From Thermoplasmata archaeon (GTDB lineage Archaea; Thermoplasmatota; Thermoplasmata; Lutacidiplasmatales; SKW197): a stretch of 58,523 nt of DNA. The stretch spans positions 1 to 58,523 of the forward strand of contig JBMFNP010000004.1 in the NCBI GenBank assembly GCA_049970095.1, given 5' to 3'. A program made the translations under genes and the position numbers. The notes under the pieces were generated by a model. It made no database searches and was not told where the DNA came from. It saw only the letters and a program-made list of their open reading frames with translations. Of this stretch, positions 14,851-41,220 are shown one piece after another (the first letter of the stretch is position 1; the number at the start of each line of letters is the position of its first letter).

Positions 14851-14852
14851 AT

Positions 14853-14946: not shown

Positions 14947-14978
14947 TTTATCTTTTAGTTTGATATTGGAGCTTTACC

Positions 14979-16035: not shown

Positions 16036-16038
16036 GAA

Positions 16039-17280: not shown

Positions 17281-17369
17281 GGATAGGGCATGGCCTGCCC
17301 AGTCTGCAGAAATGACATTTTTCCTTTGGGACTGGCTGGATCGGTTTCTGTAATCTTCCGTACTTGCGC

Positions 17370-18647: not shown

Positions 18648-18651
18648 TTTC

Positions 18652-19563: not shown

Positions 19564-19565
19564 AT

Positions 19566-20642
19566 TTACAGCCCCCAGATATCTTCAATGTTGAGCAGTA
19601 ATGCCCGTATCTCATCAGGTGTCCAGTCACCCATATGTCCTATTCTGAATGTCTTGTCCTTCAGGGCACCATATCCATTGGAAATCTGGTAGCCTCGCTT
19701 TCCCAGTGCTTTGTTCAACTCTCCAATGTTCTTGTTAAGATTGTTCTTAAGTGTGCTCACGGTTATGGATTCATAACCATGCTCTGGGAAAATTTCAATT
19801 CCATGTTCCGTTGCCCATTTGCGTGTCATTTCTGCCATTGCCAGATGTCTCTCGTATCTCTTCTGTGCGGTTTCTGCAAGCATTCTATCTAACTGGTAAT
19901 CCAGTGCATACATTAGAGAGATGTTTGGGGTTGTGGGATTCTGTTTTTTCTTTGCATAATAATCAAAGATTGCAATCAGGTCTGTATAATGCCCTCTCCC
20001 CGGTACCTGCTTTGCCCTCTCCAGTGCTGCATCAGAGACAATCCCTATTGAAAGCCCGGGTGGAAGTGCAAAACATTTCTGGGTAGATGTGAATATAATG
20101 TCTGCATTCATTACATCAGGTTCAATCAGATCTCCGCCTGCAGAAGATACGGTGTCCACCACAATCATTATCTCTGGGTGTTCTTTTTTTACCGCATTAC
20201 AGATTTCGTTTGCAGGAGTTCTAACTCCCGTGGATGTTTCGTTCTGGCAGAATGCAAGTGTGTCATAATTCCCGCTAGCCAGGCGTTCAAGTACCATCTG
20301 AGGTTTTATTGCCTTTCCCCAGTCAACAACCAGTGCATCAACATCTTTCCCGCAATCCTTGATTGTGAGATACATTCTCTCTGAAAATGCGCCATTCACA
20401 CAAGCCAGTGCCTTCTTTTTTACCATGTTCCTGCCTGTAATGTCCATCCAGATTGTACCAGATGCTGTGAGTACTGTTATGTTTCGCTTGGTGTTGAAAT
20501 ATTTCTGGAGTTTTTCTATAATTCCAGTGTAGAGTTTTGTATATTCATCACTTCTGTGTCCAATCATGGGTTTTGTCTGCTGGAGAAGCACTTCTGGCAA
20601 TACATCTGTTGGACCTGGTATTAATAATCTTTTGTGTGCCAT
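19566..20642 (-). CDS. Class V aminotransferase (phosphoserine/serine-glyoxylate type)
   Basis: LIPGPT N-terminus and the STQKCFALPPG PLP-lysine region. Adjacent to serA. Confidence 0.85.
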   Translation of the reverse strand: MAHKRLLIPGPTDVLPEVLLQQTKPMIGHRSDEYTKLYTGIIEKLQKYFNTKRNITVLTASGTIWMDITGRNMVKKKALACVNGAFSERMYLTIKDCGKDVDALVVDWGKAIKPQMVLERLASGNYDTLAFCQNETSTGVRTPANEICNAVKKEHPEIMIVVDTVSSAGGDLIEPDVMNADIIFTSTQKCFALPPGLSIGIVSDAALERAKQVPGRGHYTDLIAIFDYYAKKKQNPTTPNISLMYALDYQLDRMLAETAQKRYERHLAMAEMTRKWATEHGIEIFPEHGYESITVSTLKNNLNKNIGELNKALGKRGYQISNGYGALKDKTFRIGHMGDWTPDEIRALLLNIEDIWGL

Positions 20643-20739
20643 TTATATCACCGAAATTTGGTAAATCAATGAGATAATTAAACTTTCCTCCGAGGGTAAG
20701 CAAGGCAAGAAATATATTTATGGGAGATTATTATGGTTT

Positions 20740-21804
20740 ATGGAAAATGCAATTGTGTACTGTGAGGGAAAATTCGGGACATACACAGGCAAAACTGCAA
20801 ATGGACTTGTTAGATACTCAAAGCGTTTCAAAATTTGTGGTGTGATTGACAGCAGAAATGCTGGAAAAGATGCGGGTGAAGTTTTAGATGGAGTGAAAAA
20901 GGGAATTCCCATATATCCATCACTTGAAAGTGCGCTGGCAGATACAGAAAATGTAAAGTACTTCATAATAGGCGTGGCAACAATAGGAGGACTTTTACCA
21001 CCGGAATACCGAGAGGTTGTGAAAAAGGCAATTGAACACAAACTCAACATTGTTTCTGGGCTTCATGAATATCTTTCTGAAGACAAAGAACTCACTGCAC
21101 TGGCTGAGAAATACGGGATAAATCTAATAGATGTGAGAAAACCAAAACCATTAAAGGAGATGCACCAATTCCGAAATCTTTCAAAAACTCTGCAATGCCT
21201 CAGAATTCCTGTGCTTGGCACAGATGGTTCTATAGGTAAGAGAACCACTGCCCTCATACTTACAGACGCACTGAATGCCAGTGGAATAAAAACTGTTTTT
21301 GTAGCTACAGGGCAAACAGGGTTGATGCAGGGCTCTGAATATGGTGTTCCATTAGATTCAATTAAGGGAGATTACATGGTGGGGGAGCTGGAGGCAGAAA
21401 TCGTAAGAGCATACAACGAAAAGAAGCCAGATGTAATTGTGGTTGAAGGGCAGGGGAGTATCTCACATCCGGCATATGTATGCGGCACAAGGGCAATTAT
21501 AATGGCTGCGCAGCCTACTGGTATCGTTTGCCAGCATGCACCAAAAAGAAAATACAGAAACTTTGGAAAGGATACATTGAAACTCCCGATGCCAGACCTC
21601 CACAAAGAAATCGCAATGCTTGAAATGTTTTCTGAGGCAAAGGTTTTTGCAATAACCTTGAACCATGAAAATATGACAAAAGAGGAAGTGGAAGAGTATG
21701 TAAAAATTTACGAAAAAGATTTTGGCCTGCCCTGCTGTGATGTGCTTCTACACGGTGCTGCAAAGATAGTGGAGGCAATAAAGAGAATGCTTGGCAGAGC
21801 ATAG
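20740..21804 (+). CDS. DUF1611-family protein (P-loop-like GTDGSIGKRTT)
   Basis: Length and motifs fit DUF1611. The last 97 nt are overlapped antisense by the giant gene. Confidence 0.75.
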   Translation: MENAIVYCEGKFGTYTGKTANGLVRYSKRFKICGVIDSRNAGKDAGEVLDGVKKGIPIYPSLESALADTENVKYFIIGVATIGGLLPPEYREVVKKAIEHKLNIVSGLHEYLSEDKELTALAEKYGINLIDVRKPKPLKEMHQFRNLSKTLQCLRIPVLGTDGSIGKRTTALILTDALNASGIKTVFVATGQTGLMQGSEYGVPLDSIKGDYMVGELEAEIVRAYNEKKPDVIVVEGQGSISHPAYVCGTRAIIMAAQPTGIVCQHAPKRKYRNFGKDTLKLPMPDLHKEIAMLEMFSEAKVFAITLNHENMTKEEVEEYVKIYEKDFGLPCCDVLLHGAAKIVEAIKRMLGRA

Positions 21805-24800
21805 CCAGTGAATCCAGGGGCTGACAAACCTTTTTGTGAGTGCACAATTGCTGCTGCGTTCTCAGTATTTTGCTGGATGGCTTGTGTGCTGGGTGTTGAG
21901 GAAATTGGTTGCTCAGGTGCGTGTGTCTGGAGAGCCTCTATCTTCTGTGTTTGCTGTGCGCCATGAATTATTGTCTCCCCGAACACCTTGAGGTCATCAA
22001 TGTAAAGGCCACCAAAGCCCACATTGCTTGCATAGTGGTTTTGCAGTGTTGAATTTGTGACTACACGGAATCGTAGCAGAATTACAGAACCTCTCCAGCC
22101 TGATAAATCCACATTCAACCTGTAGAGTGATTTTGCAGGTACCCAGTATTGCTTGTCTCCAGGTTCGGTTATGCCTGTATAACTTGTGCCTGATGGCATT
22201 CCTTGTTGCGTTCCCTCTGTACCCGATACATTCCAACCGCTACGCACTCCCAGACAAATTGGCTGCCAGCTAACTCCGTTATCTGCACTCACCTCTACCC
22301 TGAACCCATCTGGAGGTCTCCCTGTGCCCTGTGTTCCCCAGTTTATATTGAATCTGAAGTAGGCAGCAAGTGTAGCATTTCTCGCATTTGTGAGGTCTAT
22401 AGGTCTTGTAATCAAGCTGTTATCAATTCCTCCGCTAAAGTATCCAGTATTGGTATTACCATTCCACCAGACACCCACACCTCTGTGCGCCCTATTACTG
22501 TCCTGCACATACACCCACTGGTCTGCTATGTTTGCAGTATTACTAACACTGTTCTTTCTTGTAATCTTTACCTCCACATCATCTATGTACCAATAACCAT
22601 TCGCACCTGCACCACCAAAAAGATACTGGAAAGCAACCTTTATCTGTCTGCTACCACTTGAAGGAATGTACTTTGTGAGGTTGACTTCGCCATATTCCCA
22701 GTCCCCAGAGCCTCCTCCACTGTTTCCAGAATACACCCAGTTTATCCAGTTCCCATAACCATCCCTGAACATAAACAGGAGGGTGTTTGTAGGATAGGGT
22801 TTTGTGGGGTTTACATACTCATATCTCCACCCACTATCACTAGTGCCCACCATTATTATGCCACCATTGAAAAAGGGAACTAAACTGAACTTATGATAGA
22901 ATGAAAGCGTTGCAGATTCCATGCTTGCGTCAAGGGTGATTGCAGGTGTCTGTGTGTAATTACACCCATCAGTATCCTTTGGCTGATAGAGATCTATTAC
23001 AAGGGGTTGTGGAGAGTTGTGTGCCATTGGTACAATTCCTGCACCTCCGCCTCCGCCAACGAGAGTTGCACCTTCAAATGGGAGAATTGTGTGTATCCAG
23101 CAGTTACCTCCACCTCCAAATATATAAAGAAACCTGCTAGTGGCAGAATACTGCCATGCATAGTTATTGTCACCGAAGTGTGTATGTCTTTCATCTATTG
23201 TTGTGGATGGATTGTCTGCCACATTGTTGAGCTGCCACACAATTGAACCGCCTTCTGCGAAAGAGATGCTATCAATTCCAAAATATCCACCATTTCCTAC
23301 ATTTGCCTGGAATGAAATTCTGTGTGCACCCCATGGTAGAGAAATTGGCCCACTTACTGGTTGCCAGCTACCACTATCCATCCTATACTGAATATTACTG
23401 ATTGTGCCTGATGTTGTGTAAGTGAGTGTGAAATTGAATGTGCTAACATAGTCAATGCTATTTGAGTTGACATTTGCGTTGGCAGTGCTACCCAATATCG
23501 GTAAACTTGGATTTATTGTTACTGTATCTCCTTTTCCAAAGGTGAAGTGCTGATACTCGTTCTGAAGAAGCACATCTTTGGAAGGTACACCGTACACACA
23601 TGGAGAGCCAATTGTATAATGCCCTGGTGTTTCATCACTTGGCACATACTGAACTACAGAATCCACACCAAAGGTATCCGGTGAGTAATAACCAGTATAA
23701 TCTGTGCTGAAAGAAGTACCGCTAAACTGGTCCTGTCCAAAAATCACACGAACTGGTTGTGTTGATGTAATGTGGAACACATGGAGGTTACTATCGCCTG
23801 GTGGGTTGTTTCTGCTAATCACATAGAAACTTTTTGCAGGCACCGTAGCACTTCCGCTCCATGAACCCCCTGCAATTTCCTGAACTGTAACAGTTGCTGC
23901 TGCATTGTTAGGATTTGCTATATAAAATCTCCAGGGCCAGGAGCCCACAGACTTGTAGGTAACACAGTAGTGCTCTGTATCAAGTGAATTTCCACTGACA
24001 CCCATTGCATTATCAATCTCATCATTGTCATTTGAAAGCCGATATAGAATAATATCATTTGTTGCTGTTACATTTGCATAGACAGTGTAATGCCCTGCAT
24101 TCAGTCTTGCCTCACCCCATGCACCCTTACCATTAAGTGTTAGCGTATCTGTTTCAATTACATTTCCATTTTGGTAATTTATCCATCTCACAGTTACGGT
24201 TGTGCTCACTGCAGCAGGATTTATTGCAACCACATGTGTCTCCCAACCAAGCCTATTCCTTATATCTCCCATCACCACGAAATTTTTTCCTATACCCATA
24301 CCATTCTCCCAGTTCGCACAGTTCACATTTGAACCCTCACTTGAAGTTACAACAATCAGCATCGGACCATTGGAAATCACCTTGTAAACTGTCTCTGCGT
24401 TCTGATTCTCATATAATCTTATCTGCCCTGGATTTGTCGTGTTCACATCTATCCTGTCCCATTTAGGTGTAGTTCTGTCAAATCTCCAGAGCGTGTAATT
24501 TGAGGTTTTGTTCACACCCACAAAATAGAAACCCTGATGAAAGCCTGTGGGATCCCATGGGTCAATTGGAAGATAAAATTCATAAATGAAAGGAACCTCA
24601 CCTGCAGGTTCTATCATTCCAAATGCGTTTGGATATGTGTGATAAGTTTTATTTGTGATTGAAAATCCGTGGAGTTTTGTAGTAGCTTTGTCCCAGCCAT
24701 CCCAGTATCTACTTACATATGTATTTACATCGCCTCCGGGGTCAAGATACTCAATTGGAGATTCGCCATTAATTCGCACAACCGTTGCCTCGTGCTTCCA

Positions 24801-27800
24801 GTTCCTTAATATTCTCTGAGTGTCCTCAAGGTCATCATAGAAGTAATACACCTCAATTCTCTGCTCTGCCATATTGTTCGGACGCAGGGGCTCAATTCCA
24901 ATCAGCAACCCCTCTGGGTCTATATGTGCCCTTATTGGCTCAATACCTGCAAACAGTGGTGTCCAGATAACCTCTGCAGTAATCTTGCCATTCTGTGCCT
25001 GTCCATATGCATCCTTATAGCTTGCAGGCACATGCACATTCTGCGAGCCAATTACAGTGTCTCCATCAAGGAAGCGCACAATCACATCTGCATCCCTGCC
25101 ACCCCAATTCGTGAGATTTGCTTTTAGCACATAGGATTCTCCAAGCTGGGGGTTCAATTCTGGCAGAATTATGTACTGTCTCGTGTTTGTGGCTGCAAAA
25201 ATGTCTGGTGGTGTTACTCTCAGTTCTGGCTTGTTGTCCAATTTCCCAAACCAGTGAATTATGCCGTAAAGGAAATCTGCAACTGCGCTGATATTTGTTG
25301 TGTATGCAAGATCAAATGAAAGATAGGCAGCGTGCCAGCTTGCGGGATTTGCTATTCCTGTGCCTACCACATTGTCGCTTGTTCTTGCCCAATAACTTGT
25401 GCCATCTGCCCAGAACAACGGAATTGCATCAGCAATCCTTGTATATGCTCTTACATTATAGGGAGAAAGGGAGGTGTTATCAAAGTTCATGTAAATTCCA
25501 TTTGTCACTGCGTTCTCAAGAACTCCATATACACCTGAACGCTGAACAGTTGTCCCTGTGCTGCTTGCACCCAGTACATTCTGGTAGAAATCTGGTCTTG
25601 CCTGAACAGTGGTATCCGCAAGCACATTTTTCCCGATAAGGAGGAATGAAACCTGGTCCAAGCCTGTATTCAGATAACTCTCAATTACATTAATATCATT
25701 GTTTGTGAGTGTGTTGTAGCCGCTACCGCTTGTGCAGTTCCCTGTAATCCAAATGATGCAACTGTAGTTTGATGCATTGTAAGCAGTATTATCTCTATCT
25801 ACACCTCTTGGTACCTTCTGGATATCCATATCTGTGCCATTCACATATCCCAACGATGTAAGGGCATTAATTACATACTGGGCTACATTTGGGAGCGTTC
25901 CCCCTCCTCCATTTTCCGATGAGGAATCATCGTCCACAACCAACACAGTATATATTACTTCAAGTGTGTAAACACCCACATCTGAAACATACACATTGTT
26001 TGCCTCATTTGTCTCATCTATCTCATTGTCAGGGTCAACAACCACTTTTACAATGTAGCTCCCAACTTTATCCGGAACCCACTGGAATTTTATCAGTTTC
26101 CAGCTTCCATTGCCTGGCAGATCCGTCACATTATCCAGTAATGTTTTCGGCTGGTCATTTATGTACAGCCTAGTTCTAACATTTGTAAGATTTACATCTC
26201 CATTGTTTCTTATCACTGCTGTAATATTAACTGGCTGATTGTATCTGGGTTTAAGTGGTGAAATTGTCTGCCCTGCAACCGCTACATCCTTTCCTGAACG
26301 CATGTCTATTCCTCCAAGCCAGTTAATTACTTTGTAAACTGTAACTGCCTGGTCCCCTGTATCGTTCATGGTTGCAAATTCAAATCCAAAAACCACACTC
26401 CTGTACTCATTATTACTGCTCCCAATTGCTTTATACTGGTATGCTAAAATTCTGGTATTCGTACTATCATTAAACAATGGCTTTGAGCCAGAAACAGGGT
26501 TCAATTGTCTGGCAATTGTAAATGGACTTCTGCTCTGCAACGAAGGATTAAAGCCTGAGGTGTCTATCCATCCCATGCCCGGATTTGTGCCTACAAGTGA
26601 GGAGGGCAGAGGAACTGTACTACTAATACCTCCACCTACCTTGTTGGTAAACCAGGAAGGCACACCTTCAAATATGTTCTGACCAATCAGCCACAATCTA
26701 CCACCGTTATCAAGGAATGTGTTAAGGCTAGTTTGGTCACCTGTGGTCAGGGTGTTATTTGTGCTTCCACCCATCCAGATCACCACATCATAATCTCTCA
26801 GTTTTTTATCGCCTGTGTTGTACCCAGGCCCATCTGCGCCCCCAGATACCACTGCAATATCATATCTGAGATTTGCGGAAAGGAGGGCAGCAGCCATATA
26901 TGAAACAACATCATTACTGCTCCCAGTAAGGGCACCATCATCGTCAACTAACAGAATTTTTGGGGTGACCACAACCGTGATGTTGGCACCCACACCATTC
27001 AGCTTACCTGGCATCACATCTGTAATATTAACCACAATTTTGTGCACACCTCCTGGTTTTGCCTCCCAGTACGCGAAGGCAAGGCTCTGCCCGTAACCCG
27101 CAACAGAGAAGTTTGTAATTGTGTAATTCCATATCTCCCTGCCATCAAAATAATCCCTAAATGTGATATTTGAAGATTCCGCAGCCCTTGCCTTCATATT
27201 CTTAATTACCGCTGTGATGGTAACATTGTCGCCTCTCGTGGGTGAATGGTTGCTTAAAATAATTCTGTCAACAACAAGCAGGGGTAAACCCTCACCAGTA
27301 ATCACATTTATTGTAATCTGAGCAATGGACTTGTGGCTCTTGTTGTCCGTGGCATTGATTATGCCTGTGTATTTGCCTGGGAGTACTGAGGGAGAAAGCG
27401 AGAGATTGTCTGTCATGAATTTCCAGCCACCAGTGTGGTTCATTTTTATAGGAGTTTTGAATGTGGTATTGTCCAATTTCCAGAGGTCTATGTATACGGA
27501 GTCGTAGTTGAGGTCACTATCTTTAACAATTACCCATACCTTGAAAGATTTGCCTGTCTCCACAATTTCAGGCTCGGTGCCCCTTTCCAGGATTTGTGGA
27601 GGTGCATTTATATCTTTTCCAGGGAGAACTCCCTGCCACACAATCAGGTTTTTCACATTATCAATCACCTGGACTGTAACATTGGAAATAACTGAATGAG
27701 TGGTTGGCGTCTTCCATCTCCATACCTCACCAGGCTCCCAGAAATCACCAAGGTTAACAAGGGAATCAGAGACATTTCTTATAAACACCGCAGGAGGTAA

Positions 27801-28109
27801 TGTATCTGTCAGGGTGATTACGATAGTTATCATGTCTTTTGAAAGGGGTTCTCCACCTTTATGTGTGAGGTTTATGTAATACCTATATGAGGGCACATTC
27901 CCAATACTCTCATCCCCTATTCCCAGTTCTCCAATTATTTCTACATTGCGTTTTCCTTCGGGTGGAGGTAATGTCTGTATCCATACAAAAATCGTGCTGA
28001 ACAGCGTCACTGTTATTCCCAGAATCAACAGCGTTGCTATCACTTCCGAAACACCTTTCCTTGCTCTCTTCCACATTCTTACATTTTTATTCTTCATTTT
28101 TCTCACCAC
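21708..28109 (-). CDS. Giant surface protein 1 (2133 aa): class III (type IV pilin-like) signal peptide, CARDB-like domains, two jelly-roll (MAM-like) domains, PGF-CTERM-like tail
   Basis: Uninterrupted 6.4-kb ORF. The N-terminus KRARKG/VSEVIATLLILGITVTLFSTIF is pilin-type. CARDB-type DPDNEIDETNEANNV is present. Domain ends read GYWYIDDVEVK and GLYIDDLKVFGE. The tail is SAPGFTGYALPSILFIASTIFAAPCR. The likely true start is ATG 28097, behind GGTGGTGA. Confidence 0.9.
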   Translation of the reverse strand: MVRKMKNKNVRMWKRARKGVSEVIATLLILGITVTLFSTIFVWIQTLPPPEGKRNVEIIGELGIGDESIGNVPSYRYYINLTHKGGEPLSKDMITIVITLTDTLPPAVFIRNVSDSLVNLGDFWEPGEVWRWKTPTTHSVISNVTVQVIDNVKNLIVWQGVLPGKDINAPPQILERGTEPEIVETGKSFKVWVIVKDSDLNYDSVYIDLWKLDNTTFKTPIKMNHTGGWKFMTDNLSLSPSVLPGKYTGIINATDNKSHKSIAQITINVITGEGLPLLVVDRIILSNHSPTRGDNVTITAVIKNMKARAAESSNITFRDYFDGREIWNYTITNFSVAGYGQSLAFAYWEAKPGGVHKIVVNITDVMPGKLNGVGANITVVVTPKILLVDDDGALTGSSNDVVSYMAAALLSANLRYDIAVVSGGADGPGYNTGDKKLRDYDVVIWMGGSTNNTLTTGDQTSLNTFLDNGGRLWLIGQNIFEGVPSWFTNKVGGGISSTVPLPSSLVGTNPGMGWIDTSGFNPSLQSRSPFTIARQLNPVSGSKPLFNDSTNTRILAYQYKAIGSSNNEYRSVVFGFEFATMNDTGDQAVTVYKVINWLGGIDMRSGKDVAVAGQTISPLKPRYNQPVNITAVIRNNGDVNLTNVRTRLYINDQPKTLLDNVTDLPGNGSWKLIKFQWVPDKVGSYIVKVVVDPDNEIDETNEANNVYVSDVGVYTLEVIYTVLVVDDDSSSENGGGGTLPNVAQYVINALTSLGYVNGTDMDIQKVPRGVDRDNTAYNASNYSCIIWITGNCTSGSGYNTLTNNDINVIESYLNTGLDQVSFLLIGKNVLADTTVQARPDFYQNVLGASSTGTTVQRSGVYGVLENAVTNGIYMNFDNTSLSPYNVRAYTRIADAIPLFWADGTSYWARTSDNVVGTGIANPASWHAAYLSFDLAYTTNISAVADFLYGIIHWFGKLDNKPELRVTPPDIFAATNTRQYIILPELNPQLGESYVLKANLTNWGGRDADVIVRFLDGDTVIGSQNVHVPASYKDAYGQAQNGKITAEVIWTPLFAGIEPIRAHIDPEGLLIGIEPLRPNNMAEQRIEVYYFYDDLEDTQRILRNWKHEATVVRINGESPIEYLDPGGDVNTYVSRYWDGWDKATTKLHGFSITNKTYHTYPNAFGMIEPAGEVPFIYEFYLPIDPWDPTGFHQGFYFVGVNKTSNYTLWRFDRTTPKWDRIDVNTTNPGQIRLYENQNAETVYKVISNGPMLIVVTSSEGSNVNCANWENGMGIGKNFVVMGDIRNRLGWETHVVAINPAAVSTTVTVRWINYQNGNVIETDTLTLNGKGAWGEARLNAGHYTVYANVTATNDIILYRLSNDNDEIDNAMGVSGNSLDTEHYCVTYKSVGSWPWRFYIANPNNAAATVTVQEIAGGSWSGSATVPAKSFYVISRNNPPGDSNLHVFHITSTQPVRVIFGQDQFSGTSFSTDYTGYYSPDTFGVDSVVQYVPSDETPGHYTIGSPCVYGVPSKDVLLQNEYQHFTFGKGDTVTINPSLPILGSTANANVNSNSIDYVSTFNFTLTYTTSGTISNIQYRMDSGSWQPVSGPISLPWGAHRISFQANVGNGGYFGIDSISFAEGGSIVWQLNNVADNPSTTIDERHTHFGDNNYAWQYSATSRFLYIFGGGGNCWIHTILPFEGATLVGGGGGAGIVPMAHNSPQPLVIDLYQPKDTDGCNYTQTPAITLDASMESATLSFYHKFSLVPFFNGGIIMVGTSDSGWRYEYVNPTKPYPTNTLLFMFRDGYGNWINWVYSGNSGGGSGDWEYGEVNLTKYIPSSGSRQIKVAFQYLFGGAGANGYWYIDDVEVKITRKNSVSNTANIADQWVYVQDSNRAHRGVGVWWNGNTNTGYFSGGIDNSLITRPIDLTNARNATLAAYFRFNINWGTQGTGRPPDGFRVEVSADNGVSWQPICLGVRSGWNVSGTEGTQQGMPSGTSYTGITEPGDKQYWVPAKSLYRLNVDLSGWRGSVILLRFRVVTNSTLQNHYASNVGFGGLYIDDLKVFGETIIHGAQQTQKIEALQTHAPEQPISSTPSTQAIQQNTENAAAIVHSQKGLSAPGFTGYALPSILFIASTIFAAPCRSTSQQGRPKSFS
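21949..25339. repeat. Direct repeat copy A (3391 nt), over 99% identical to 28343..31736
   Basis: Constant offset of 6397 nt (6394 before a 3-nt indel). Duplicated shadow ORFs in the six-frame track confirm it, as does a base-by-base comparison of both ends. Confidence 0.95.
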
Positions 28110-31100
28110 CTTTTATTTTTACAATTTTTGCATTTCTGGTCTGCAATAAAGAAAGAATTCCAAGCAAAAAATAATAAAAAGAATCACCAAAAGAAGGATT
28201 AGTAATTCTAGTGCTCGCAACAACTGGTGATGGCACTCCTCCTTCTCCAGAGCACTTTTCCATTTGCTCTTCTGTTGTGTGGCCATTGCATTCTTCTCTT
28301 ATAATCTCCGATAATTTCTGTGTTTGCGTCTGTGTTTGTACAGTTTGCTGTGCGCCATGAATTATTGTCTCCCCGAACACCTTGAGGTCATCAATGTAAA
28401 GGCCACCAAAGCCCACAGTGTTGCTTGCATAGTGGTTTTGCAGTGTTGAATTTGTGACTACACGGAATCGTAGCAGAATTACAGAACCTCTCCAGCCTGA
28501 TAAATCCACATTCAACCTATAGAGTGATTTTGCAGGTACCCAGTATTGCTTGTCTCCAGGTTCGGTTATGCCTGTATAACTTGTGCCTGATGGCATTCCT
28601 GGTTGCGTTCCCTCTGTACCCGATACATTCCAACCGCTACGCACTCCCAGACAAATTGGCTGCCAGCTAACTCCGTTATCTGCACTCACCTCTACCCTGA
28701 ACCCATCTGGAGGTCTCCCAGAACCACCAACACCCCAGTTTATATTGAATCTGAAGTAGGCAGCAAGTGTAGCATTTCTCGCATTTGTGAGGTCTATAGG
28801 TCTTGTAATCAAGCTGTTATCAATTCCTCCGCTAAAGTATCCAGTATTGGTATTACCATTCCACCAGACACCCACACCTCTGTGCGCCCTATTACTGTCC
28901 TGCACATACACCCACTGGTCTGCTATGTTTGCAGTATTACTAACACTGTTCTTTCTTGTAATCTTTACCTCCACATCATCTATGTACCAATAACCATTCG
29001 CACCTGCACCACCAAAAAGATACTGGAAAGCAACCTTTATCTGTCTGCTACCACTTGAAGGAATGTACTTTGTGAGGTTGACTTCGCCATATTCCCAGTC
29101 CCCAGAGCCTCCTCCACTGTTTCCAGAATACACCCAGTTTATCCAGTTCCCATAACCATCCCTGAACATAAACAGGAGGGTGTTTGTAGGATAGGGTTTT
29201 GTGGGGTTTACATACTCATATCTCCACCCACTATCACTAGTGCCCACCATTATTATGCCACCATTGAAAAAGGGAACTAAACTGAACTTATGATAGAATG
29301 AAAGCGTTGCAGATTCCATGCTTGCGTCAAGGGTGATTGCAGGTGTCTGTGTGTAATTACACCCATCAGTATCCTTTGGCTGATAGAGATCTATTACAAG
29401 GGGTTGTGGAGAGTTGTGTGCCATTGGTACAATTCCTGCACCTCCGCCTCCGCCAACGAGAGTTGCACCTTCAAATGGGAGAATTGTGTGTATCCAGCAG
29501 TTACCTCCACCTCCAAATATATAAAGAAACCTGCTAGTGGCAGAATACTGCCATGCATAGTTATTGTCACCGAAGTGTGTATGTCTTTCATCTATTGTTG
29601 TGGATGGATTGTCTGCCACATTGTTGAGCTGCCACACAATTGAACCGCCTTCTGCGAAAGAGATGCTATCAATTCCAAAATATCCACCATTTCCTACATT
29701 TGCCTGGAATGAAATTCTGTGTGCACCCCATGGTAGAGAAATTGGCCCACTTACTGGTTGCCAGCTACCACTATCCATCCTATACTGAATATTACTGATT
29801 GTGCCTGATGTTGTGTAAGTGAGTGTGAAATTGAATGTGCTAACATAGTCAATGCTATTTGAGTTGACATTTGCGTTGGCAGTGCTACCCAATATCGGTA
29901 AACTTGGATTTATTGTTACTGTATCTCCTTTTCCAAAGGTGAAGTGCTGATACTCGTTCTGAAGAAGCACATCTTTGGAAGGTACACCGTACACACATGG
30001 AGAGCCAATTGTATAATGCCCTGGTGTTTCATCACTTGGCACATACTGAACTACAGAATCCACACCAAAGGTATCCGGTGAGTAATAACCAGTATAATCT
30101 GTGCTGAAAGAAGTACCGCTAAACTGGTCCTGTCCAAAAATCACACGAACTGGTTGTGTTGATGTAATGTGGAACACATGGAGGTTACTATCGCCTGGTG
30201 GGTTGTTTCTGCTAATCACATAGAAACTTTTTGCAGGCACCGTAGCACTTCCGCTCCATGAACCCCCTGCAATTTCCTGAACTGTAACAGTTGCTGCTGC
30301 ATTGTTAGGATTTGCTATATAAAATCTCCAGGGCCAGGAGCCCACAGACTTGTAGGTAACACAGTAGTGCTCTGTATCAAGTGAATTTCCACTGACACCC
30401 ATTGCATTATCAATCTCATCATTGTCATTTGAAAGCCGATATAGAATAATATCATTTGTTGCTGTTACATTTGCATAGACAGTGTAATGCCCTGCATTCA
30501 GTCTTGCCTCACCCCATGCACCCTTACCATTAAGTGTTAGCGTATCTGTTTCAATTACATTTCCATTTTGGTAATTTATCCATCTCACAGTTACGGTTGT
30601 GCTCACTGCAGCAGGATTTATTGCAACCACATGTGTCTCCCAACCAAGCCTATTCCTTATATCTCCCATCACCACGAAATTTTTTCCTATACCCATACCA
30701 TTCTCCCAGTTCGCACAGTTCACATTTGAACCCTCACTTGAAGTTACAACAATCAGCATCGGACCATTGGAAATCACCTTGTAAACTGTCTCTGCGTTCT
30801 GATTCTCATATAATCTTATCTGCCCTGGATTTGTCGTGTTCACATCTATCCTGTCCCATTTAGGTGTAGTTCTGTCAAATCTCCAGAGCGTGTAATTTGA
30901 GGTTTTGTTCACACCCACAAAATAGAAACCCTGATGAAAGCCTGTGGGATCCCATGGGTCAATTGGAAGATAAAATTCATAAATGAAAGGAACCTCACCT
31001 GCAGGTTCTATCATTCCAAATGCGTTTGGATATGTGTGATAAGTTTTATTTGTGATTGAAAATCCGTGGAGTTTTGTAGTAGCTTTGTCCCAGCCATCCC

Positions 31101-34100
31101 AGTATCTACTTACATATGTATTTACATCGCCTCCGGGGTCAAGATACTCAATTGGAGATTCGCCATTAATTCGCACAACCGTTGCCTCGTGCTTCCAGTT
31201 CCTTAATATTCTCTGAGTGTCCTCAAGGTCATCATAGAAGTAATACACCTCAATTCTCTGCTCTGCCATATTGTTCGGACGCAGGGGTTCAATTCCAATC
31301 AGCAACCCCTCTGGGTCTATATGTGCCCTTATCGGCTCAATACCTGCAAACAGGGGTGTCCAGATAACCTCTGCAGTAATCTTGCCATTCTGTGCCTGTC
31401 CATATGCATCCTTATAGCTTGCAGGCACATGCACATTCTGCGAGCCAATTACAGTGTCTCCATCAAGGAAGCGCACAATCACATCTGCATCCCTGCCACC
31501 CCAATTCGTGATATTTGCTTTTAGCACATAGGATTCTCCAAGCTGGGGGTTCAATTCTGGCAGAATTATGTACTGTCTCGTGTTTGTGGCTGCAAAAATG
31601 TCTGGTGGTGTTACTCTCAGTTCTGGCTTGTTGTCCAATTTCCCAAACCAGTGAATTATGCCGTAAAGGAAATCTGCAACTGCGCTGATATTTGTTGTGT
31701 ATGCAAGATCAAATGAAAGATAGGCAGCGTGCCAGCCTGCACTATCTCTCAGCGCTGTGCCTACTACATTGTCACTTGTTCTTGACCAAAAACTTGTGGC
31801 ATTTGCCCAGAATAAGGGCATTGCAGATGTGGTGTTTCTGTAACTCCTTACCCAGTAATTTCCTGCAAAGCTTGTGTTTGAAAGTGAAAATGAAATTCCA
31901 TTGGTGATTGCGTTTTCGCGTACCCCATATATTGGGGTAGTCATCTGGAAGGATGTTGCCCCAGAAATATCCGCACCCAGATAATCTCTTTTGAATGTAA
32001 TATCTACAGCACTATCTGAAAGCACACTTCTCCCAACCAGGAGGAAGGATGTCTGGGAGGGAGCACTTGCAAGATAAGCCCTGATATCGTGCACATCATC
32101 GGCTGTGAGTGTATTTGTAGATGTACCTCCAGTACTCCCTGCAGCCCCTGTAAGCCAGATCACGGTATTATAATTCACGAGCGGATAATTTGTCTGGTTT
32201 CTACTCTGACCAGCAGGCACCCAATCAATATCCATGTTCATACCCTTGACATAACCGAGCTGCGTCAGGGCGTTTACTACATGAGTGCCCACATCTGGCA
32301 GACTTGTAGTGTTAGATGAATCATCATCTACTACAAGGATCGTGTAAATTACCTCTATTGCAAACACCCCGATCTCGCTCACAAAAACATTATTCTGTTC
32401 ATTTGTCTCTTCAATTTCATCCTTAGGGTCTATCATTGCCTTTATTACATATTCCCCAACCGCTGGTGGTGTCCATATAAATGGAGGGAGCGTCTTTGAA
32501 TCCCCGTTCGGCTGTAAGGTAACAATCTGCAGGAGGGCGGGCTCAAGTTTTCCATTTATTATGAGCCCTACCTCGGTGGTCTGCGCACTGTTTCCATTGT
32601 TTCTCACGGTTACATTTATGTAAATTGGCTGGTTGTACCTTGGCTTCAGTGGTGCGATAGTCTGCCCTGAGACCGCAAGGTCCTCTCCACTTCTGTTATT
32701 TATCCCTCCAAGCCAGTTAACAATGAGGTATGCAGCCACCGCCTGATCTCCTGTCTCTTTCATTCTTCCAATATCAAACGCTGTCACCACCACCCTGTAT
32801 TCATACACCCCAGCAACGCTCTTGTACTGTGTCGCAAGAACATTTATCATGTTATCATCTGTAAGGAGAGTTTTTGCTGTGCTTACAGTGAGCTTTCTGG
32901 CTATTGTAAATGGAGGATACGAAACAATCACTGGATTCAGATTCGTGGCATTTATCCACCCTGTGCCAGGGTATGCACCCTTCATGCTAGCAGGCAACGG
33001 AACTGTAGATACACTGCTAATACCAAACATTGCATACAGTGGATTTGCACCTTCTAAGATATTCTGTCCTATGAGCCATACCCTACCCCCATTATTCATA
33101 AACCTTGTAAGGTTGTTCTGGTCGTTGGTAGTGAGTGTGTTGTTGTCTTTACCACCAACCCAGATTACCACATCGTAATCCTTCAATTGCTTCTCACCAC
33201 TATCATATTTGGGCCCATCTGCACCTGAGGGCACTATAACAGTATCAAATTTAATGTTTGTGGCTAAGAGTGCTGAGGACACATTGCTTGCACAATCACC
33301 AGATGCACCTGCAATTACACCATCATCATCCACAAGAAGAATTTTTGGGGTCACAATTACCGTGATGTTTCCACTTCTGCCTATTAAATTACCAGGCATT
33401 ACCTCTGTGATTCTCACTTCAATCGTGTGCAAACCACCAGGAGATGCAACCCAGTCAATGAAAGCGAGGCTCTGTCCATAAGCGGGTACCGAGAAATTGG
33501 TGACACTGCCCAGGTATGTCCATATACCGCTATCATTATAATAATCCCAGAATGAAATGTTTGATGATTCTGCAGCCCTTTTTCCGCCATTTTTAATCAC
33601 TGCAGTTATTGTCACCTTTTCACCACGTGGTGGTGCACCATCTGAAAGTTCAATTTTCTCCACATATAGCTTCGGAAATCCCTCTCCAGAAACAATGCTA
33701 AGGTACATAAGGGCAGAGCTGTTGTGCCCCTTCATATCCACAGCCCATACCTTTACAATAAATCTGCCAGGTTCCATATTGTCACTCAGGATAAGATTTT
33801 CAGTTTCAAATTTCCAGCCTATAGTGTGCTTCATTTTTATTGGCACAGGAAATCTAACAGAGTCAACAGAGGAGAGATTAACATAAACTGAATCATAATC
33901 CAGGTCTATGTCCTTTACCACAACCCATATTCTGAACTCCTTTTCAATTATAATCGGGTCAGGTGTTGAACCCCTCTCAGTAATTTCTGGGGGTTCATCT
34001 GGAATCTCACCTGTAAGTCTGCACTGCCATACAATTAAATTTTTCACAGTGTTAACAATTGTAATTGTCACATCAGAGACGAATGTTTTGCTCACACTCC

Positions 34101-34476
34101 ATGACCACACATCGCCAGGTTCAAGTGTGTTCTTTGCAATCCCGTCTGTGATATTAAGGGTATATACGGAATTATCAGAGATAACAGTGATGTAGATTTT
34201 TGTTGAGTGATTGAAAAGTGGTTCCCCGTTCAGATGCGTCATGTTGATGTAGTAGGTGAAAGGCCCCGCTCCTTTTATCTCCAAGCTGGCTTTCAGCTCT
34301 GTTTTAGGTGCACTCTGGGGTGGAGGCATTGCCTGCACCCACATGAAAATCGTGGAAAAGAGTGTCACGGTGATTGCAAGAATCAGAATCTGGGCTATAA
34401 CCTCAGAAATTCCACTCCTATTGCTCCTGAAAGGTATCCTCTTTCCCCGCTCACTGGAATTACCTTTTTCTTTCAT
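28087..34476 (-). CDS. Giant surface protein 2 (2129 aa), paralog of protein 1: class III signal peptide, same domain order, different C-terminal hydrophobic tail
   Basis: Uninterrupted 6.4-kb ORF. The N-terminus FRSNRSG/ISEVIAQILILAITVTLFSTIF is pilin-type. The tail is NPSFGDSFYYFLLGILSLLQTRNAK. GGTGA lies 4 nt upstream of ATG 34476. Confidence 0.9.
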   Translation of the reverse strand: MKEKGNSSERGKRIPFRSNRSGISEVIAQILILAITVTLFSTIFMWVQAMPPPQSAPKTELKASLEIKGAGPFTYYINMTHLNGEPLFNHSTKIYITVISDNSVYTLNITDGIAKNTLEPGDVWSWSVSKTFVSDVTITIVNTVKNLIVWQCRLTGEIPDEPPEITERGSTPDPIIIEKEFRIWVVVKDIDLDYDSVYVNLSSVDSVRFPVPIKMKHTIGWKFETENLILSDNMEPGRFIVKVWAVDMKGHNSSALMYLSIVSGEGFPKLYVEKIELSDGAPPRGEKVTITAVIKNGGKRAAESSNISFWDYYNDSGIWTYLGSVTNFSVPAYGQSLAFIDWVASPGGLHTIEVRITEVMPGNLIGRSGNITVIVTPKILLVDDDGVIAGASGDCASNVSSALLATNIKFDTVIVPSGADGPKYDSGEKQLKDYDVVIWVGGKDNNTLTTNDQNNLTRFMNNGGRVWLIGQNILEGANPLYAMFGISSVSTVPLPASMKGAYPGTGWINATNLNPVIVSYPPFTIARKLTVSTAKTLLTDDNMINVLATQYKSVAGVYEYRVVVTAFDIGRMKETGDQAVAAYLIVNWLGGINNRSGEDLAVSGQTIAPLKPRYNQPIYINVTVRNNGNSAQTTEVGLIINGKLEPALLQIVTLQPNGDSKTLPPFIWTPPAVGEYVIKAMIDPKDEIEETNEQNNVFVSEIGVFAIEVIYTILVVDDDSSNTTSLPDVGTHVVNALTQLGYVKGMNMDIDWVPAGQSRNQTNYPLVNYNTVIWLTGAAGSTGGTSTNTLTADDVHDIRAYLASAPSQTSFLLVGRSVLSDSAVDITFKRDYLGADISGATSFQMTTPIYGVRENAITNGISFSLSNTSFAGNYWVRSYRNTTSAMPLFWANATSFWSRTSDNVVGTALRDSAGWHAAYLSFDLAYTTNISAVADFLYGIIHWFGKLDNKPELRVTPPDIFAATNTRQYIILPELNPQLGESYVLKANITNWGGRDADVIVRFLDGDTVIGSQNVHVPASYKDAYGQAQNGKITAEVIWTPLFAGIEPIRAHIDPEGLLIGIEPLRPNNMAEQRIEVYYFYDDLEDTQRILRNWKHEATVVRINGESPIEYLDPGGDVNTYVSRYWDGWDKATTKLHGFSITNKTYHTYPNAFGMIEPAGEVPFIYEFYLPIDPWDPTGFHQGFYFVGVNKTSNYTLWRFDRTTPKWDRIDVNTTNPGQIRLYENQNAETVYKVISNGPMLIVVTSSEGSNVNCANWENGMGIGKNFVVMGDIRNRLGWETHVVAINPAAVSTTVTVRWINYQNGNVIETDTLTLNGKGAWGEARLNAGHYTVYANVTATNDIILYRLSNDNDEIDNAMGVSGNSLDTEHYCVTYKSVGSWPWRFYIANPNNAAATVTVQEIAGGSWSGSATVPAKSFYVISRNNPPGDSNLHVFHITSTQPVRVIFGQDQFSGTSFSTDYTGYYSPDTFGVDSVVQYVPSDETPGHYTIGSPCVYGVPSKDVLLQNEYQHFTFGKGDTVTINPSLPILGSTANANVNSNSIDYVSTFNFTLTYTTSGTISNIQYRMDSGSWQPVSGPISLPWGAHRISFQANVGNGGYFGIDSISFAEGGSIVWQLNNVADNPSTTIDERHTHFGDNNYAWQYSATSRFLYIFGGGGNCWIHTILPFEGATLVGGGGGAGIVPMAHNSPQPLVIDLYQPKDTDGCNYTQTPAITLDASMESATLSFYHKFSLVPFFNGGIIMVGTSDSGWRYEYVNPTKPYPTNTLLFMFRDGYGNWINWVYSGNSGGGSGDWEYGEVNLTKYIPSSGSRQIKVAFQYLFGGAGANGYWYIDDVEVKITRKNSVSNTANIADQWVYVQDSNRAHRGVGVWWNGNTNTGYFSGGIDNSLITRPIDLTNARNATLAAYFRFNINWGVGGSGRPPDGFRVEVSADNGVSWQPICLGVRSGWNVSGTEGTQPGMPSGTSYTGITEPGDKQYWVPAKSLYRLNVDLSGWRGSVILLRFRVVTNSTLQNHYASNTVGFGGLYIDDLKVFGETIIHGAQQTVQTQTQTQKLSEIIREECNGHTTEEQMEKCSGEGGVPSPVVASTRITNPSFGDSFYYFLLGILSLLQTRNAKIVKIKGGEKNEE
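28343..31736. repeat. Direct repeat copy B (3394 nt)
   Basis: See copy A. Confidence 0.95.
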
Positions 34477-34506
34477 GCGCTCACCATTGGGAGTATCTAC
34501 TTTTCC

Positions 34507-34516
34507 CTATATATAC
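34507..34516 (-). promoter_or_regulatory. TATA-like box upstream of giant gene 2
   Basis: gtatatatag on the minus strand, 31-40 nt upstream of ATG 34476. Confidence 0.35.
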
Positions 34517-34642
34517 TTTCATTGGAACATACCATCAAAACTACCATGTATACTAATATATATTGTCAACCATATATTATTGCAAATATGTCATACAATT
34601 TTAAGGGCATACTGCTTTATATCCCTACACTAATCTCTGTGC

Positions 34643-35560
34643 GTGCAAGATGTGGAACTCTCTGTAAAAATTGGAGGATTAAAACTCAAAAATCCTCTGA
34701 TAGCTGCCTCTGGAATTCTGGATAGTTCTGCAGAGAGTATGGTGCGGGTGGCTTCCGCAGGTGCTGCGGCCGTGGTAACGAAATCCATAGGAATTGAGAA
34801 GAGAGATGGATATGAAAACCCGGTTATTTTTGAATTTGAACATGGCGTAATTAATGCAATGGGATTACCAAATCCTGGTATTGAAAACTTTGGTGAAGAA
34901 ATGAGAAAACTGAGAGCATTTAAGGTGAGAGTAATTGGTAGTATTTTCGGAAAGAATGAAGAGGAATTTGCATATCTTGCTAAGAAGATGGAAGAATATG
35001 GTGCATGTGCTCTGGAGTTAAATTTAAGTTGTCCACATGCAAAGGGGTATGGAATGGAAGTGGGGCGAAACCCTGTCCTTGTCAAAAGTATTGTAAAGGC
35101 TGTCAAAAAGAATGTGAAAATTCCTGTGTTTGTAAAACTTACGCCCAATGTTTCAGACATAGTGGAAATCGGAAAGGCTGCTGAAAAAGGAGGCGCAGAT
35201 GCAGTGGTGGCAATTAACACGCTCCGAGGAACGAGAATAGATATTGAGTTTAAAAGAAGCGTGATTAGTGCTGGAATAGGAGGATATAGTGGTCCGGGTA
35301 TTCTGCCAGTAGGAATAAGATGTGTTTATGAACTAAAAAAGGAACTGAAAATTCAGATTATAGGGTGTGGGGGAATTGAAAAATGGGAAGATGTGATTGA
35401 GTATATACTGGCTGGTGCGTCTGCAGTGCAGATTGGCACAGCACTCAGAAAAAATATAGAGATTTTCGGGACAATATCATCAGGAATAAAGAGTTATATG
35501 CAGAAACATGGATTCACAAAATTGGAGGAGGTTGTGGGACTTGCATGTAGAAATTCTTGA
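34643..35560 (+). CDS. pyrD: Dihydroorotate dehydrogenase (class 1B) catalytic subunit
   Basis: LKLKNPLIAASG, NLSCPH and GGI...D motifs. GTG start, with tttatat at ~34615. Confidence 0.92.
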   Translation: MQDVELSVKIGGLKLKNPLIAASGILDSSAESMVRVASAGAAAVVTKSIGIEKRDGYENPVIFEFEHGVINAMGLPNPGIENFGEEMRKLRAFKVRVIGSIFGKNEEEFAYLAKKMEEYGACALELNLSCPHAKGYGMEVGRNPVLVKSIVKAVKKNVKIPVFVKLTPNVSDIVEIGKAAEKGGADAVVAINTLRGTRIDIEFKRSVISAGIGGYSGPGILPVGIRCVYELKKELKIQIIGCGGIEKWEDVIEYILAGASAVQIGTALRKNIEIFGTISSGIKSYMQKHGFTKLEEVVGLACRNS

Positions 35561-36269
35561 TGTCATTGATGAGAACCCGTCCGTCAAAACTTTTTTATTC
35601 AATTTCAATATGGCAGTGAAACCTGGGCAATTTTGCATGGTATGGGATGGGATGGGTGAGGAAGTTCCCATGAGCTTTTCCTACATTGACAAACCCCACG
35701 GAATAACTGTAAAAAAGGTAGGAAAAAGTACAGCCTTACTCCATAAATTGAGGCGAGGGGAGATTCTAAGGGTACGCGGTCCTTTTGGAAATGGCTACCC
35801 GATCCTCCCTCAAAATTATCTTATCGTTTCTGGGGGCACAGGGATTGCCTCAGTAGCATCTGCAGCTGAGACAATTGCCAAAATCGGTGGAAAATGCGTA
35901 TTCCTTGCAGGTTTCCGCACAGCGGATGATGTCTTTTTCATAGAAAGGTTGAGAAAGGGCGGCATAACACTAAAAATCTGTACAGATGATGGGAGTTTAG
36001 GTTATAAGGGCTTTGTTACCGCTCTTGCGAAAAAAATTATAGAGAAAGAAAAATTTGATTTATGCATAGCATGTGGTCCAGAACCAATGTTGAAAGAACT
36101 CTGCAAGATCACTGCAGGAAAAATTAAAACTTTTGTTTCCCTTGAGCGCCATATAAAATGTGGAATTGGAATTTGCGATGCATGTTCAATCTATGGACTG
36201 CGGGTGTGCATGGAAGGCCCAGTTTTTGACGCAGATGTTCTTCTAAGTAAAGGATTTGGAGGTGATTGA
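35508..36269 (+). CDS. pyrK: Dihydroorotate dehydrogenase electron-transfer subunit
   Basis: FAD/NAD-binding fold (PGQF, RGPFGNG, GGTGIA) and a C-terminal CGIGICDAC...C 2Fe-2S motif. The true start may be TTG ~35541. Confidence 0.88.
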   Translation: MDSQNWRRLWDLHVEILDVIDENPSVKTFLFNFNMAVKPGQFCMVWDGMGEEVPMSFSYIDKPHGITVKKVGKSTALLHKLRRGEILRVRGPFGNGYPILPQNYLIVSGGTGIASVASAAETIAKIGGKCVFLAGFRTADDVFFIERLRKGGITLKICTDDGSLGYKGFVTALAKKIIEKEKFDLCIACGPEPMLKELCKITAGKIKTFVSLERHIKCGIGICDACSIYGLRVCMEGPVFDADVLLSKGFGGD

Positions 36270-36836
36270 TTGAAGATTGTAGTGTGTATTACAGGCGCAT
36301 CTGGTGCTGTATACGGGGTGCGACTTATTGAAACACTCCATCATCTGGGCCAGGAAACCTATCTTATTCTTTCGGAACATGGGGCAGAGGTAGTTGCACA
36401 TGAAACTGGCATTGATACTGAGAATCTTGCAGTCCTTACACAAAGGTGTTATAAAAATACAGATATGAATGCTGATATTGCTTCCGGCTCAGTTAAATAT
36501 GATGCATGTGTGATTGTACCGTGTAGTATGAATACACTTGCAAAAATTGCTTCCGGGATTTCAGATAATCTCATAACAAGAGTTGCATCTGTGTGTCTGA
36601 AGGAGCGAAGAAAATTGATTGTTGTGCCGAGGGAAACCCCACTCAGCAAAATACACATTGAGGGAATGTTAAGGGTTGTGGATGCTGGTGGTGTCGTGCT
36701 GCCTGCAATGCCTGGTTTCTACATGAAACCGAAGAATATTGAGGAACTCATAGATTTTATTGTGGCGAGAGTGCTTGATGCACTGGGCGTGGAACACACG
36801 CTCACTAAAAGATGGCAGCGATATGATGGAATTTGA
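36270..36836 (+). CDS. ubiX: Flavin prenyltransferase UbiX
   Basis: KIVVCITGASGAVYG, PCSMNTLAKIA and PRETPL motifs. The TTG start abuts the pyrK stop, behind GGAGGTGA. Confidence 0.9.
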   Translation: MKIVVCITGASGAVYGVRLIETLHHLGQETYLILSEHGAEVVAHETGIDTENLAVLTQRCYKNTDMNADIASGSVKYDACVIVPCSMNTLAKIASGISDNLITRVASVCLKERRKLIVVPRETPLSKIHIEGMLRVVDAGGVVLPAMPGFYMKPKNIEELIDFIVARVLDALGVEHTLTKRWQRYDGI

Positions 36837-36858
36837 AGGCTGAAACCAGTTTTCTCCC

Positions 36859-38193: not shown

Positions 38194-38261
38194 TGTATCA
38201 CCATGAGCCTATACGCAACCAATAAATTATACTTTTGCTTCAACCCATTATGGAAGGGAAT

Positions 38262-39340: not shown

Positions 39341-39535
39341 TCACCAAAAGATATTATTAAAAAAGCAGTATTTAAGTTTTTCTATCTATGGGGGAAGGTA
39401 GAAAAATGTATATGTTCCCCACTTTCCAGAAAAATTCTTATAGTACCTACCAATTTTTCTACACCACCACAAAATCAAAAGGTTAATATATCGCTACTTC
39501 ATATTCCACCCAAAGCGTCAGGGCAGGTGAACGCA

Positions 39536-41206: not shown

Positions 41207-41220
41207 CAGTGTGTGTTGCA

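Follow-up and report, generated by a model that had tools for sequence, protein, structure and literature searches.

A probable recent gene conversion between tandem giant surface-protein genes of a Thermoplasmata archaeon

Introduction

Archibald and Roger are said to have described, in 2002, gene conversion between the chaperonin (thermosome) paralogues of archaea, and in bacteria Neisseria pilE/pilS and Borrelia vlsE are cassette systems of antigenic variation. The lpl lipoprotein cluster of Staphylococcus aureus has a conserved central region that recombines and so shuffles the 5' and 3' variable regions between strains (Tsuru & Kobayashi 2008, PMC2568036). In the polyploid Haloferax volcanii intermolecular gene conversion equalises the genome copies (PMC11276520), and in the VARTIG modules of Thermococcales recombination between strains or species makes a C-terminal Ig domain hypervariable, a process that by the authors' account does not involve different loci within a genome (Makarova et al. 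2021, PMC8416519). Here we describe two tandem, overlapping minus-strand genes, B and A, each coding for about 2130 amino acids (aa), which lie in a 58,523-nucleotide (nt) stretch of an uncultivated hot-spring Thermoplasmata archaeon (assembly GCA_049970095.1, contig JBMFNP010000004.1, positions 1 to 58,523; the window in what follows). With good confidence we take the pair to be old tandem surface-protein genes in which about 3.4 kb of B was recently copied into A by gene conversion.

28087..34476, minus strand: gene B, 2129 aa in the list of open reading frames (ORFs), the upstream gene of the pair and donor of the block
21708..28097, minus strand (ORF extending to a GTG at 28109): gene A, 2133 aa counted from the GTG, the recipient and a chimera

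The locus resembles lpl in its tandem surface-protein paralogues, conserved internal recombination segment, mosaic genes and incongruent 5' and 3' phylogenies, but differs in that two anchors bound an internal 3.4-kb replacement, the recipient keeps its ends, a non-homologous module is included and the host is an archaeon. With the thermosome genes it shares an intragenomic, lineage-specific homogenisation of archaeal protein-coding paralogues seen as conflicting phylogenetic signal along the gene, whereas the chaperonin tracts are short and lie in fully homologous cytosolic genes and that of A and B is very long, recent, module-swapping and extracellular. Haloferax demonstrates that archaeal machinery performs efficient non-reciprocal transfer, the machinery we infer for A and B, although there the exchange is allelic, at the same locus on chromosome copies, and here the loci are paralogous and 6.4 kb apart. 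Like the VARTIG proteins, A and B belong to large archaeal secreted proteins of the Ig/CARDB type with a C-terminal recombination hotspot; in contrast, their recombination is within the genome and homogenising, and their locus sits among housekeeping genes and not in a variable island. The cassette systems likewise transfer sequence non-reciprocally and by homology into an expressed surface-protein gene, but the window holds no silent cassettes, neither of its genes is partial, the two seem to be expressed together, and nothing points to switching at high frequency. On the sequence, then, A and B appear to fit known interlocus gene conversion and concerted evolution of tandem paralogues, with no new mechanism called for. 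What they would add is a clean, datable and directional long-tract conversion between archaeal protein-coding paralogues, 3.4 kb in length and bridging a 1.5-kb heterology, and evidence that the largest surface proteins of these wall-less organisms are being actively reshaped by homologous recombination.

Identity profile of the two genes

A and B were compared by MAFFT nucleotide alignment in 100-nt windows. Nucleotide identity is 55% in the 5' 2769 nt, 99.44% in a 3.39-kb block and 38% in the tails; per 100 nt it runs at about 50-65% over the first 2.7 kb, jumps abruptly to 98-100% for about 3.4 kb and collapses in the last 250 nt or so. The profile is thus a sharp mosaic and not the uniform one that the initial annotation had named as speaking against its proposal, and the half-identical, homologous N-terminal halves and unrelated C-terminal tails proposed there are recovered, the tails (79 codons in A, 84 in B) not being alignable to each other.

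21949..25339, minus strand: block copy in A, codons 924-2054, B-derived
28343..31736, minus strand: block copy in B, codons ~914-2045
A 22336..24890 and B 28733..31287, minus strand: 100% identical core of 2555 nt, which holds the B-type middle module (A aa 1184-1692)
A 25340..25428 and B 31737..31825, minus strand: 5' transition zone, about 85% identical
A 22323..22335 and B 28720..28732, minus strand: 13-nt patch, coding for NWGTQGTG in A and NWGVGGSG in B
A 22024..22025 against B 28418..28420, minus strand: 3-nt deletion in A, giving Asn-Val for Asn-Thr-Val
21708..21948, minus strand: A-specific tail of 79 codons, overlapping the convergent DUF1611 gene
28087..28342, minus strand: B-specific tail of 84 codons, starting with a (Gln-Thr)n linker and carrying in its 3' end the ribosome-binding site and start codon of A

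Between the two block copies 19 positions differ, in eight events, so that the initial count of about 20 stands, as does its list of a 13-nt patch, a 3-nt indel and a few single changes, some of them synonymous near 24890..24965. On the 5' side these are single-nucleotide polymorphisms (SNPs) at 25115 (Leu/Ile) and, at synonymous third positions, at 24957, 24936 and 24891; the others are ten differences within the patch (22335..22323), SNPs at 22204 and 22122, and the indel at 22024 / 28418-28420. The constant offset of 6397 nt between the copies, as first proposed, holds down to the indel, and the final 76 nt lie at 6394. All eight events fall in the outer 449 and 387 nt of the block, a clustering on which the initial annotation had not remarked, and leave its central 2555 nt free of differences; for differences spread uniformly this has a p of about 1e-5 to 2e-4. 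That run of 2555 nt, the longest identical one, is far beyond chance: when the variable columns were shuffled 2000 times, the longest run averaged 30 nt and never exceeded 54.

At the 5' boundary the fall-off runs as had been described, through a mismatch at 25340/31737, then at about 85% identity to about 25428/31825 and at about 50-55% beyond. This transition zone lies in a segment conserved among all the paralogues (aa ~904-1084), which is a probable upstream homology anchor.

Synonymous sites are homogenised too, third-position identity at conserved residues being 95-100% in the block as against 42-60% between orthologues, and so the homogenisation is not due to selection on the protein. 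That the block has been kept identical by extreme purifying selection, with no recombination at all, is for this reason close to untenable. Nothing specific speaks for such a history, save that one part of the block (aa 964-1024) shows strong conservation in every homologue. Between orthologues, identity over this block is no more than about 80% in amino acids and 63-82% in nucleotides, and the middle module is wholly missing from the A-type orthologues. The comparison of orthologues and of synonymous sites already refutes it.

Ancestry of the segments and direction of transfer

As an outgroup we used the locus of a sister genome (GCA_038874435.1), the genes of which are here called L1B (2130 aa, the same as P0001) and L1A (1865 aa). 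It is syntenic with the window, L1B being followed by an overlapping L1A and then by the convergent DUF1611 gene. By sliding identity and BLAST, aa 1-920 of A are 67-89% identical to L1A and about 50% to B and L1B. Further on, aa 1144-1812 of A are identical to B, 62-86% identical to L1B, and 19-52% identical or unalignable to L1A. B, in turn, is collinear over its full length with L1B (72% aa identity) and with P0002 (74%). At sites that discriminate L1A from L1B the window copies are B-type rather than A-type at 64 against 25 sites in aa 1074-1183 and at 96 against 36 in aa 1694-1812. The phylogenetic signal is accordingly incongruent along A, its flanks grouping with L1A and its tract with B and L1B.

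In the tail of A a linker rich in Gln, Thr and Pro is followed by the moderately hydrophobic GYALPSILFIASTIFAA and by a basic end. Over its last 30 or so residues this tail matches that of L1A at about 72% identity (both ending in TSQQGRPKSFS), and the preceding linker is diverged; the tails are lineage-specific rather than random. A PGF-CTERM/archaeosortase signal had been considered for the A tail on the strength of its 'PGF', hydrophobic stretch and basic residues, and was dropped when, at E <= 10, neither the complete proteins nor the tails taken alone matched any NCBIfam model of a C-terminal sorting signal.

Since both flanks of A are orthologous to L1A, what was overwritten is an inner segment of a gene already present, and since the block is orthologous only to the B-type gene, the transfer ran from B, as donor, to A, as recipient. 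The transfer looks non-reciprocal in that B is unchanged along its length, A is without a VWA module and the reciprocal product is absent from the window, the only place in which it was sought. The initial annotation had left the choice between gene conversion and a partial re-duplication; its recombination footprint is upheld, and of the two it is gene conversion, or an equivalent double exchange, that is favoured, whereas re-duplication is disfavoured by the L1A orthology of both A flanks. Its picture of variable N-terminal halves does not hold, for these are two stable orthologous lineages (A and L1A about 75% identical in amino acids, B and L1B about 65-70%) and not hypervariable cassettes.

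The sequence of events was probably as follows. B and A would be an old, co-transcribed tandem pair of giant surface proteins with an N-terminal type-IV-pilin-like signal or anchor. Recently, on about the time scale over which the strains diverged, some 3.4 kb of B (codons ~914-2045) would have been transferred to A, non-reciprocally, by homologous recombination. Anchoring would have been through the conserved segment at aa ~904-1084 upstream and the C-terminal MAM-like domain downstream, the tract bridging a non-homologous middle so that the VWA module of A (about 0.8 kb) was replaced by the 509-aa multi-beta-sandwich module of B, and the N-terminal half and C-terminal tail of A being left in place. 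The route could be the repair of a double-strand break or of a gap by the RadA machinery of archaea.

Within the block the patch and the clustering of differences at its edges would reflect nested or discontinuous tracts, as from patchy heteroduplex repair, or else several events of differing age. Of the ten bases that differ in the patch, A agrees in a five-way nucleotide alignment with L1A (NWGTGGTG) at five and with L1B at none, and B agrees with L1B (NWGVGGAG) at seven. The A patch is probably a relic of A as it was before conversion, or marks where the youngest tract stops. L018 (below), a contig that carries the A tail in another strain, is without the three A-specific changes of the window, the 3-nt deletion included, so that these are young, strain-level mutations; the deletion itself is probably a post-conversion mutation of the window strain, judging by this comparison.

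The replaced module

At the position of the B-type module of A, L1A has a VWA-like module with a DxSxS motif. A VWA module is found in the A-type relatives L1A, P0004, P0005, P0006, P0086 and gene 2 of the L014 locus, and none is found in the A of the window. The B-type middle module (A aa 1184-1692, 509 aa) is without a counterpart in the A-type orthologues and is rare: a set of 1.84 billion representative proteins gave 41 matches at E <= 1e-3, and only about a dozen of these are full-length. Its AlphaFold model is confident and all-beta (predicted local distance difference test, pLDDT, 82.7; predicted template-modelling score, pTM, 0.83). A Foldseek search with the model gave no global analogue (template-modelling score, TM, <= 0.19), and local likeness to the jelly-roll or beta-sandwich of Cry toxins, to the A223 triple jelly roll of Sulfolobus turreted icosahedral virus (STIV) and to reelin. 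The module is thus modelled as a stack of beta-sandwiches, to which no further function is assigned. The whole block is modelled poorly (pLDDT 53) and Foldseek gave for it only local CARDB, MAM-type and jelly-roll hints; in a sequence search of the PDB, CARDB domains were the only matches.

It would appear from the sequences that a metal-dependent adhesion-type VWA module of A has been swapped for a beta-sandwich stack, and the A of this genome would functionally be no longer a VWA protein. Such a mosaic would mislead inference of orthology, domain architecture and phylogeny for the family.

Homogenisation in other genomes

L1A and L1B are themselves 93-98% identical in nucleotides over aa 1931-2045 (87-95% at third positions), and this tract ends at the same 3' boundary as that of the window. 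A further genome (L020, GCA_038874035.1) has a tandem pair 84% identical over 897 nt of the same domain, a domain which is only about 35% identical in amino acids to that of the window. In the distant, high-GC L014 locus there are three tandem genes in B-type / VWA-type order and no recent tract, so homogenisation is not universal in the family. In all, the C-terminal domain undergoes concerted evolution within the genome in at least three lineages while the N-terminal halves stay distinct, and the event in the window would be one instance of an ongoing concerted evolution of the C-terminal part of the paralogues, independent in sister lineages.

A broader reading is that homogenisation is a maintained trait of the family, with the anchors (aa ~944-1084 and the C-terminal MAM-like domain) serving as recombination handles, the C-terminal half repeatedly equalised, and the VWA module and the rare triple beta-sandwich middle module exchanged cassette-like; we put this forward tentatively and think it rather doubtful. 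If so, a possible reason is that the two proteins have to match one shared partner, or to assemble together at the surface of a cell that has no wall.

Programmed variation, in which the block or the N-terminal halves would be exchangeable parts of an antigenic-variation system or of a diversity-generating retroelement, seems very improbable. Surface proteins, non-reciprocal transfer and a region recombined repeatedly in several genomes are all what such a system would give. However, both genes are full-length, form an apparent operon and have housekeeping flanks; tblastn and blastn find neither silent nor partial copies in the rest of the 58.5-kb window, and the N-terminal halves are stably orthologous between genomes. 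As for a retroelement, the repeat is 3.4 kb and not a template/variable pair of 100-150 nt, its mismatches are mixed and without adenine bias, and the neighbours scanned, which were not every ORF of the window, are housekeeping genes. The suggestion that the repeat could drive deletion, amplification or shuffling of the genes is plausible, yet no instance of it was found in our analysis.

A 4.2-kb contig of another species (L005) runs from the C-terminus of B into the N-terminus of A, which confirms the gene order and is silent on the rear half of A; a scan of metagenome contigs gave no same-species locus. Separately, part of the block has a 71% identical counterpart in a 652-aa fragment (P0084, from a 2021-nt contig) that bears the label Candidatus Micrarchaeia archaeon and is probably from a mis-binned Thermoplasmata contig rather than the result of a transfer.

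Independent contigs and the assembly

Five short-read contigs from four other assemblies belong to the same species, with 99.3-99.8% nucleotide identity to the window. In window coordinates they are as follows.

44476..31338: L016, from the B N-terminus to 398 nt into the block, with the B alleles at 31512 and 31354, and stopping before the next copy-specific site
28397..25775: L015, starting exactly 55 nt inside the B block end
10740..22003: L017, ending exactly 55 nt inside the A block end
19032..22003: L019, ending exactly 55 nt inside the A block end
14717..22275: L018, the A-tail contig of another strain

All five halt in or at the block, and the three ends that lie exactly 55 nt inside its 3' boundary are the signature of a de Bruijn graph of k=55 branching at a repeat. 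Three of the four junctions (B N-terminal half/block, block/B tail and block/A tail) and two copy-specific SNPs are reproduced in these contigs, so the caution first given, that the second copy might be an assembly duplication, is answered at three junctions by same-species contigs and stands at the fourth.

Some points weigh against a single recent transfer from B into A as the whole of the history. The junction of the A N-terminal half with the block (25339..25428) is covered by no independent contig, and differences confined to the block ends fit a collapse of the repeat core by assembler or polisher, so that the true core identity could be somewhat lower. Near the 5' anchor the shared state at aa 861-1000 is more A-like (43 against 19 sites), so the history there is more complex than a single B-to-A tract, and hints, which we treat with low confidence, at an older exchange in the opposite direction. 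Nor can sequence by itself separate gene conversion from two successive reciprocal exchanges.

The first two of these points bear on the possibility that the assembly is wrong in the middle of the block, in which case only the anchors would be truly near-identical, through smaller conversions, and the middle of B would have been threaded into A, or the repeat collapsed or over-polished, the real A having a VWA-type or a more diverged middle. The differences do all lie within about 450 nt of the unique flanks, approximately the distance over which paired short reads can phase; every assembly of the species from short reads is broken at this locus by the repeat, and the near-identical tracts of the sister genomes are confined to the C-terminal anchor. 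Yet the copies are not identical and their differences are reproducible (as the B alleles in L016), and the window contig crosses both copies in frame. The identical stretch from the last 5' SNP to the would-be start of the VWA module is 330 nt, short enough for read pairs, which makes mis-threading unlikely. Protein searches (word-indexed and not exhaustive) gave same-species N-terminal fragments of A and of B and no same-species VWA-type fragment. Taken together we find an artefact distinctly unlikely.

An unequal crossover followed by a deletion is the form that successive exchanges would take, in which two misaligned genome copies exchange reciprocally at the upstream anchor to give B, a hybrid of A N-terminal and B C-terminal halves, and A, and a second exchange, between the C-terminal domains of the hybrid and of A, trims this to the same chimera. 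The end product is that observed, both of the homology anchors needed are present, tandem direct repeats favour unequal exchange, and polyploidy is frequent in archaea, for example in Haloferax (PMC11276520). This route needs two events, however, and a three-gene intermediate that has left no trace. Lying within the tract, the A-lineage patch is more naturally a relic of heteroduplex repair or a tract end, and the sister genomes have short internal homogenised tracts with copy number unchanged. The route is therefore an unlikely one, and gene conversion from B into A is preferred.

The break of L015 at 25775 lies in the N-terminal half of A. Twelve of its 19 mismatches with the window cluster in the last 212 nt before its end (25775..25990, A codons ~705-780; L015 2412..2623). 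This end was considered as a sign of a longer B-like tract and rejected, the terminal mismatches being mostly not B-like; it is more likely due to strain heterogeneity, in what looks like a strain-level divergence hotspot, which may of itself interrupt assemblies.

The proteins and their genomic setting

The start of A is probably the ATG at 28097 (MKNKNVRMW...) and not the GTG at 28109, from the sequence around it, and the ATG gives an overlap of 11 nt with the stop of B.

28110..28103, minus strand: Shine-Dalgarno-like motif GGTGGTGA of A, inside the last codons of B
34519..34508, minus strand: putative TATA-like element AAAGTATATATA upstream of B, read from the sequence
34485..34481, minus strand: GGTGA upstream of B

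The placing of the ATG and of GGTGGTGA inside the B tail is kept in L001, the sister-genome locus, and in L004. Stop/start overlaps of a few to about 16 nt are seen at the junctions of such giant pilin-like genes in the window (28087..28114), L001, L004, L014 and L020. A ribosome-binding site within the end of the upstream gene together with the overlaps suggests that translation of the genes is coupled and that they form a conserved operon of two or three genes, and because there is no intergenic gap between B and A they would be co-transcribed as an operon. A scan for sigma-70 promoters and terminators, which is not applicable to an archaeon, gave background level only.

Pilin_N and CARDB domains score above the Pfam threshold in both proteins; in B they are at aa 21-97 and aa 599-698 respectively, followed by the beta-sandwich middle module. 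PF07790 reaches 40.8 and 40.6 bits in the two proteins against a cut-off of 25.2, and TIGR02537 reaches 21.8 bits in A (cut-off 20) and is under the cut-off in B. The C-termini of both have only sub-threshold InhA-like MAM and reelin-subrepeat-B Pfam matches. The class III signal motif reads RKG/VSEVIATLLILGITVTLF in A and RSG/ISEVIAQILILAITVTLF in B, and the sole strong hydrophobic peak of the proteins is at aa 18-32. By their class III signal regions A and B are archaeal type-IV-pilin-like surface proteins, which may be cleaved by a prepilin peptidase (PibD/EppA) and built into a filament or surface structure; no genes for a pilus-assembly ATPase or platform adjoin the pair. NxS/T sequons are in excess (40 and 35, with 26 and 24 expected), and homologues of A and B come, every one, from Thermoplasmata metagenome-assembled genomes. 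Exact-protein look-ups of A and B, with three variants of the start, found no identical protein on record.

The N-terminal halves of A and B each have two similar segments with the pattern LLVDDD ... DVVIW.GG ... LWLIGQN, which in A lie at aa ~384-600 and ~720-900 (about 26960..26310 and 25950..25410) and have weak ThuA-like Pfam matches. The repetition suggests duplicated domains of a glutamine-amidotransferase-like fold in a surface protein.

The neighbours of the pair are core archaeal housekeeping genes, namely DUF1611, dihydroorotate dehydrogenase, SHMT, AdoHcy hydrolase, gyrase, DnaK, GlnA and HisRS. About 97 nt at the 3' end of A (21708..21804) are shared with the convergent DUF1611 gene (20740..21804), and the same overlap is seen in L001. 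Further off, a tRNA-Trp(CCA) gene at 14853..14946 is 94 nt long, which implies an intron and supports an archaeal origin of the window.

At the ends of the window an element of about 81 nt, 96% identical between its copies, is found in inverted orientation at 1..80 and 58427..58507. It is highly structured, with the hairpins GGTAACC-CCGTGA-GGTTACC and GGGGAGGGGGC-N3-GCCCCCTCCCC. It has no Rfam match at the gathering threshold. Both copies are intergenic, one upstream of the ORF 62..985 and the other upstream of a Cbf5/TruB-like gene (57422..58429), and from its sequence the element may be a dispersed repeat resembling repetitive extragenic palindromic (REP) sequences or miniature inverted-repeat transposable elements (MITEs).

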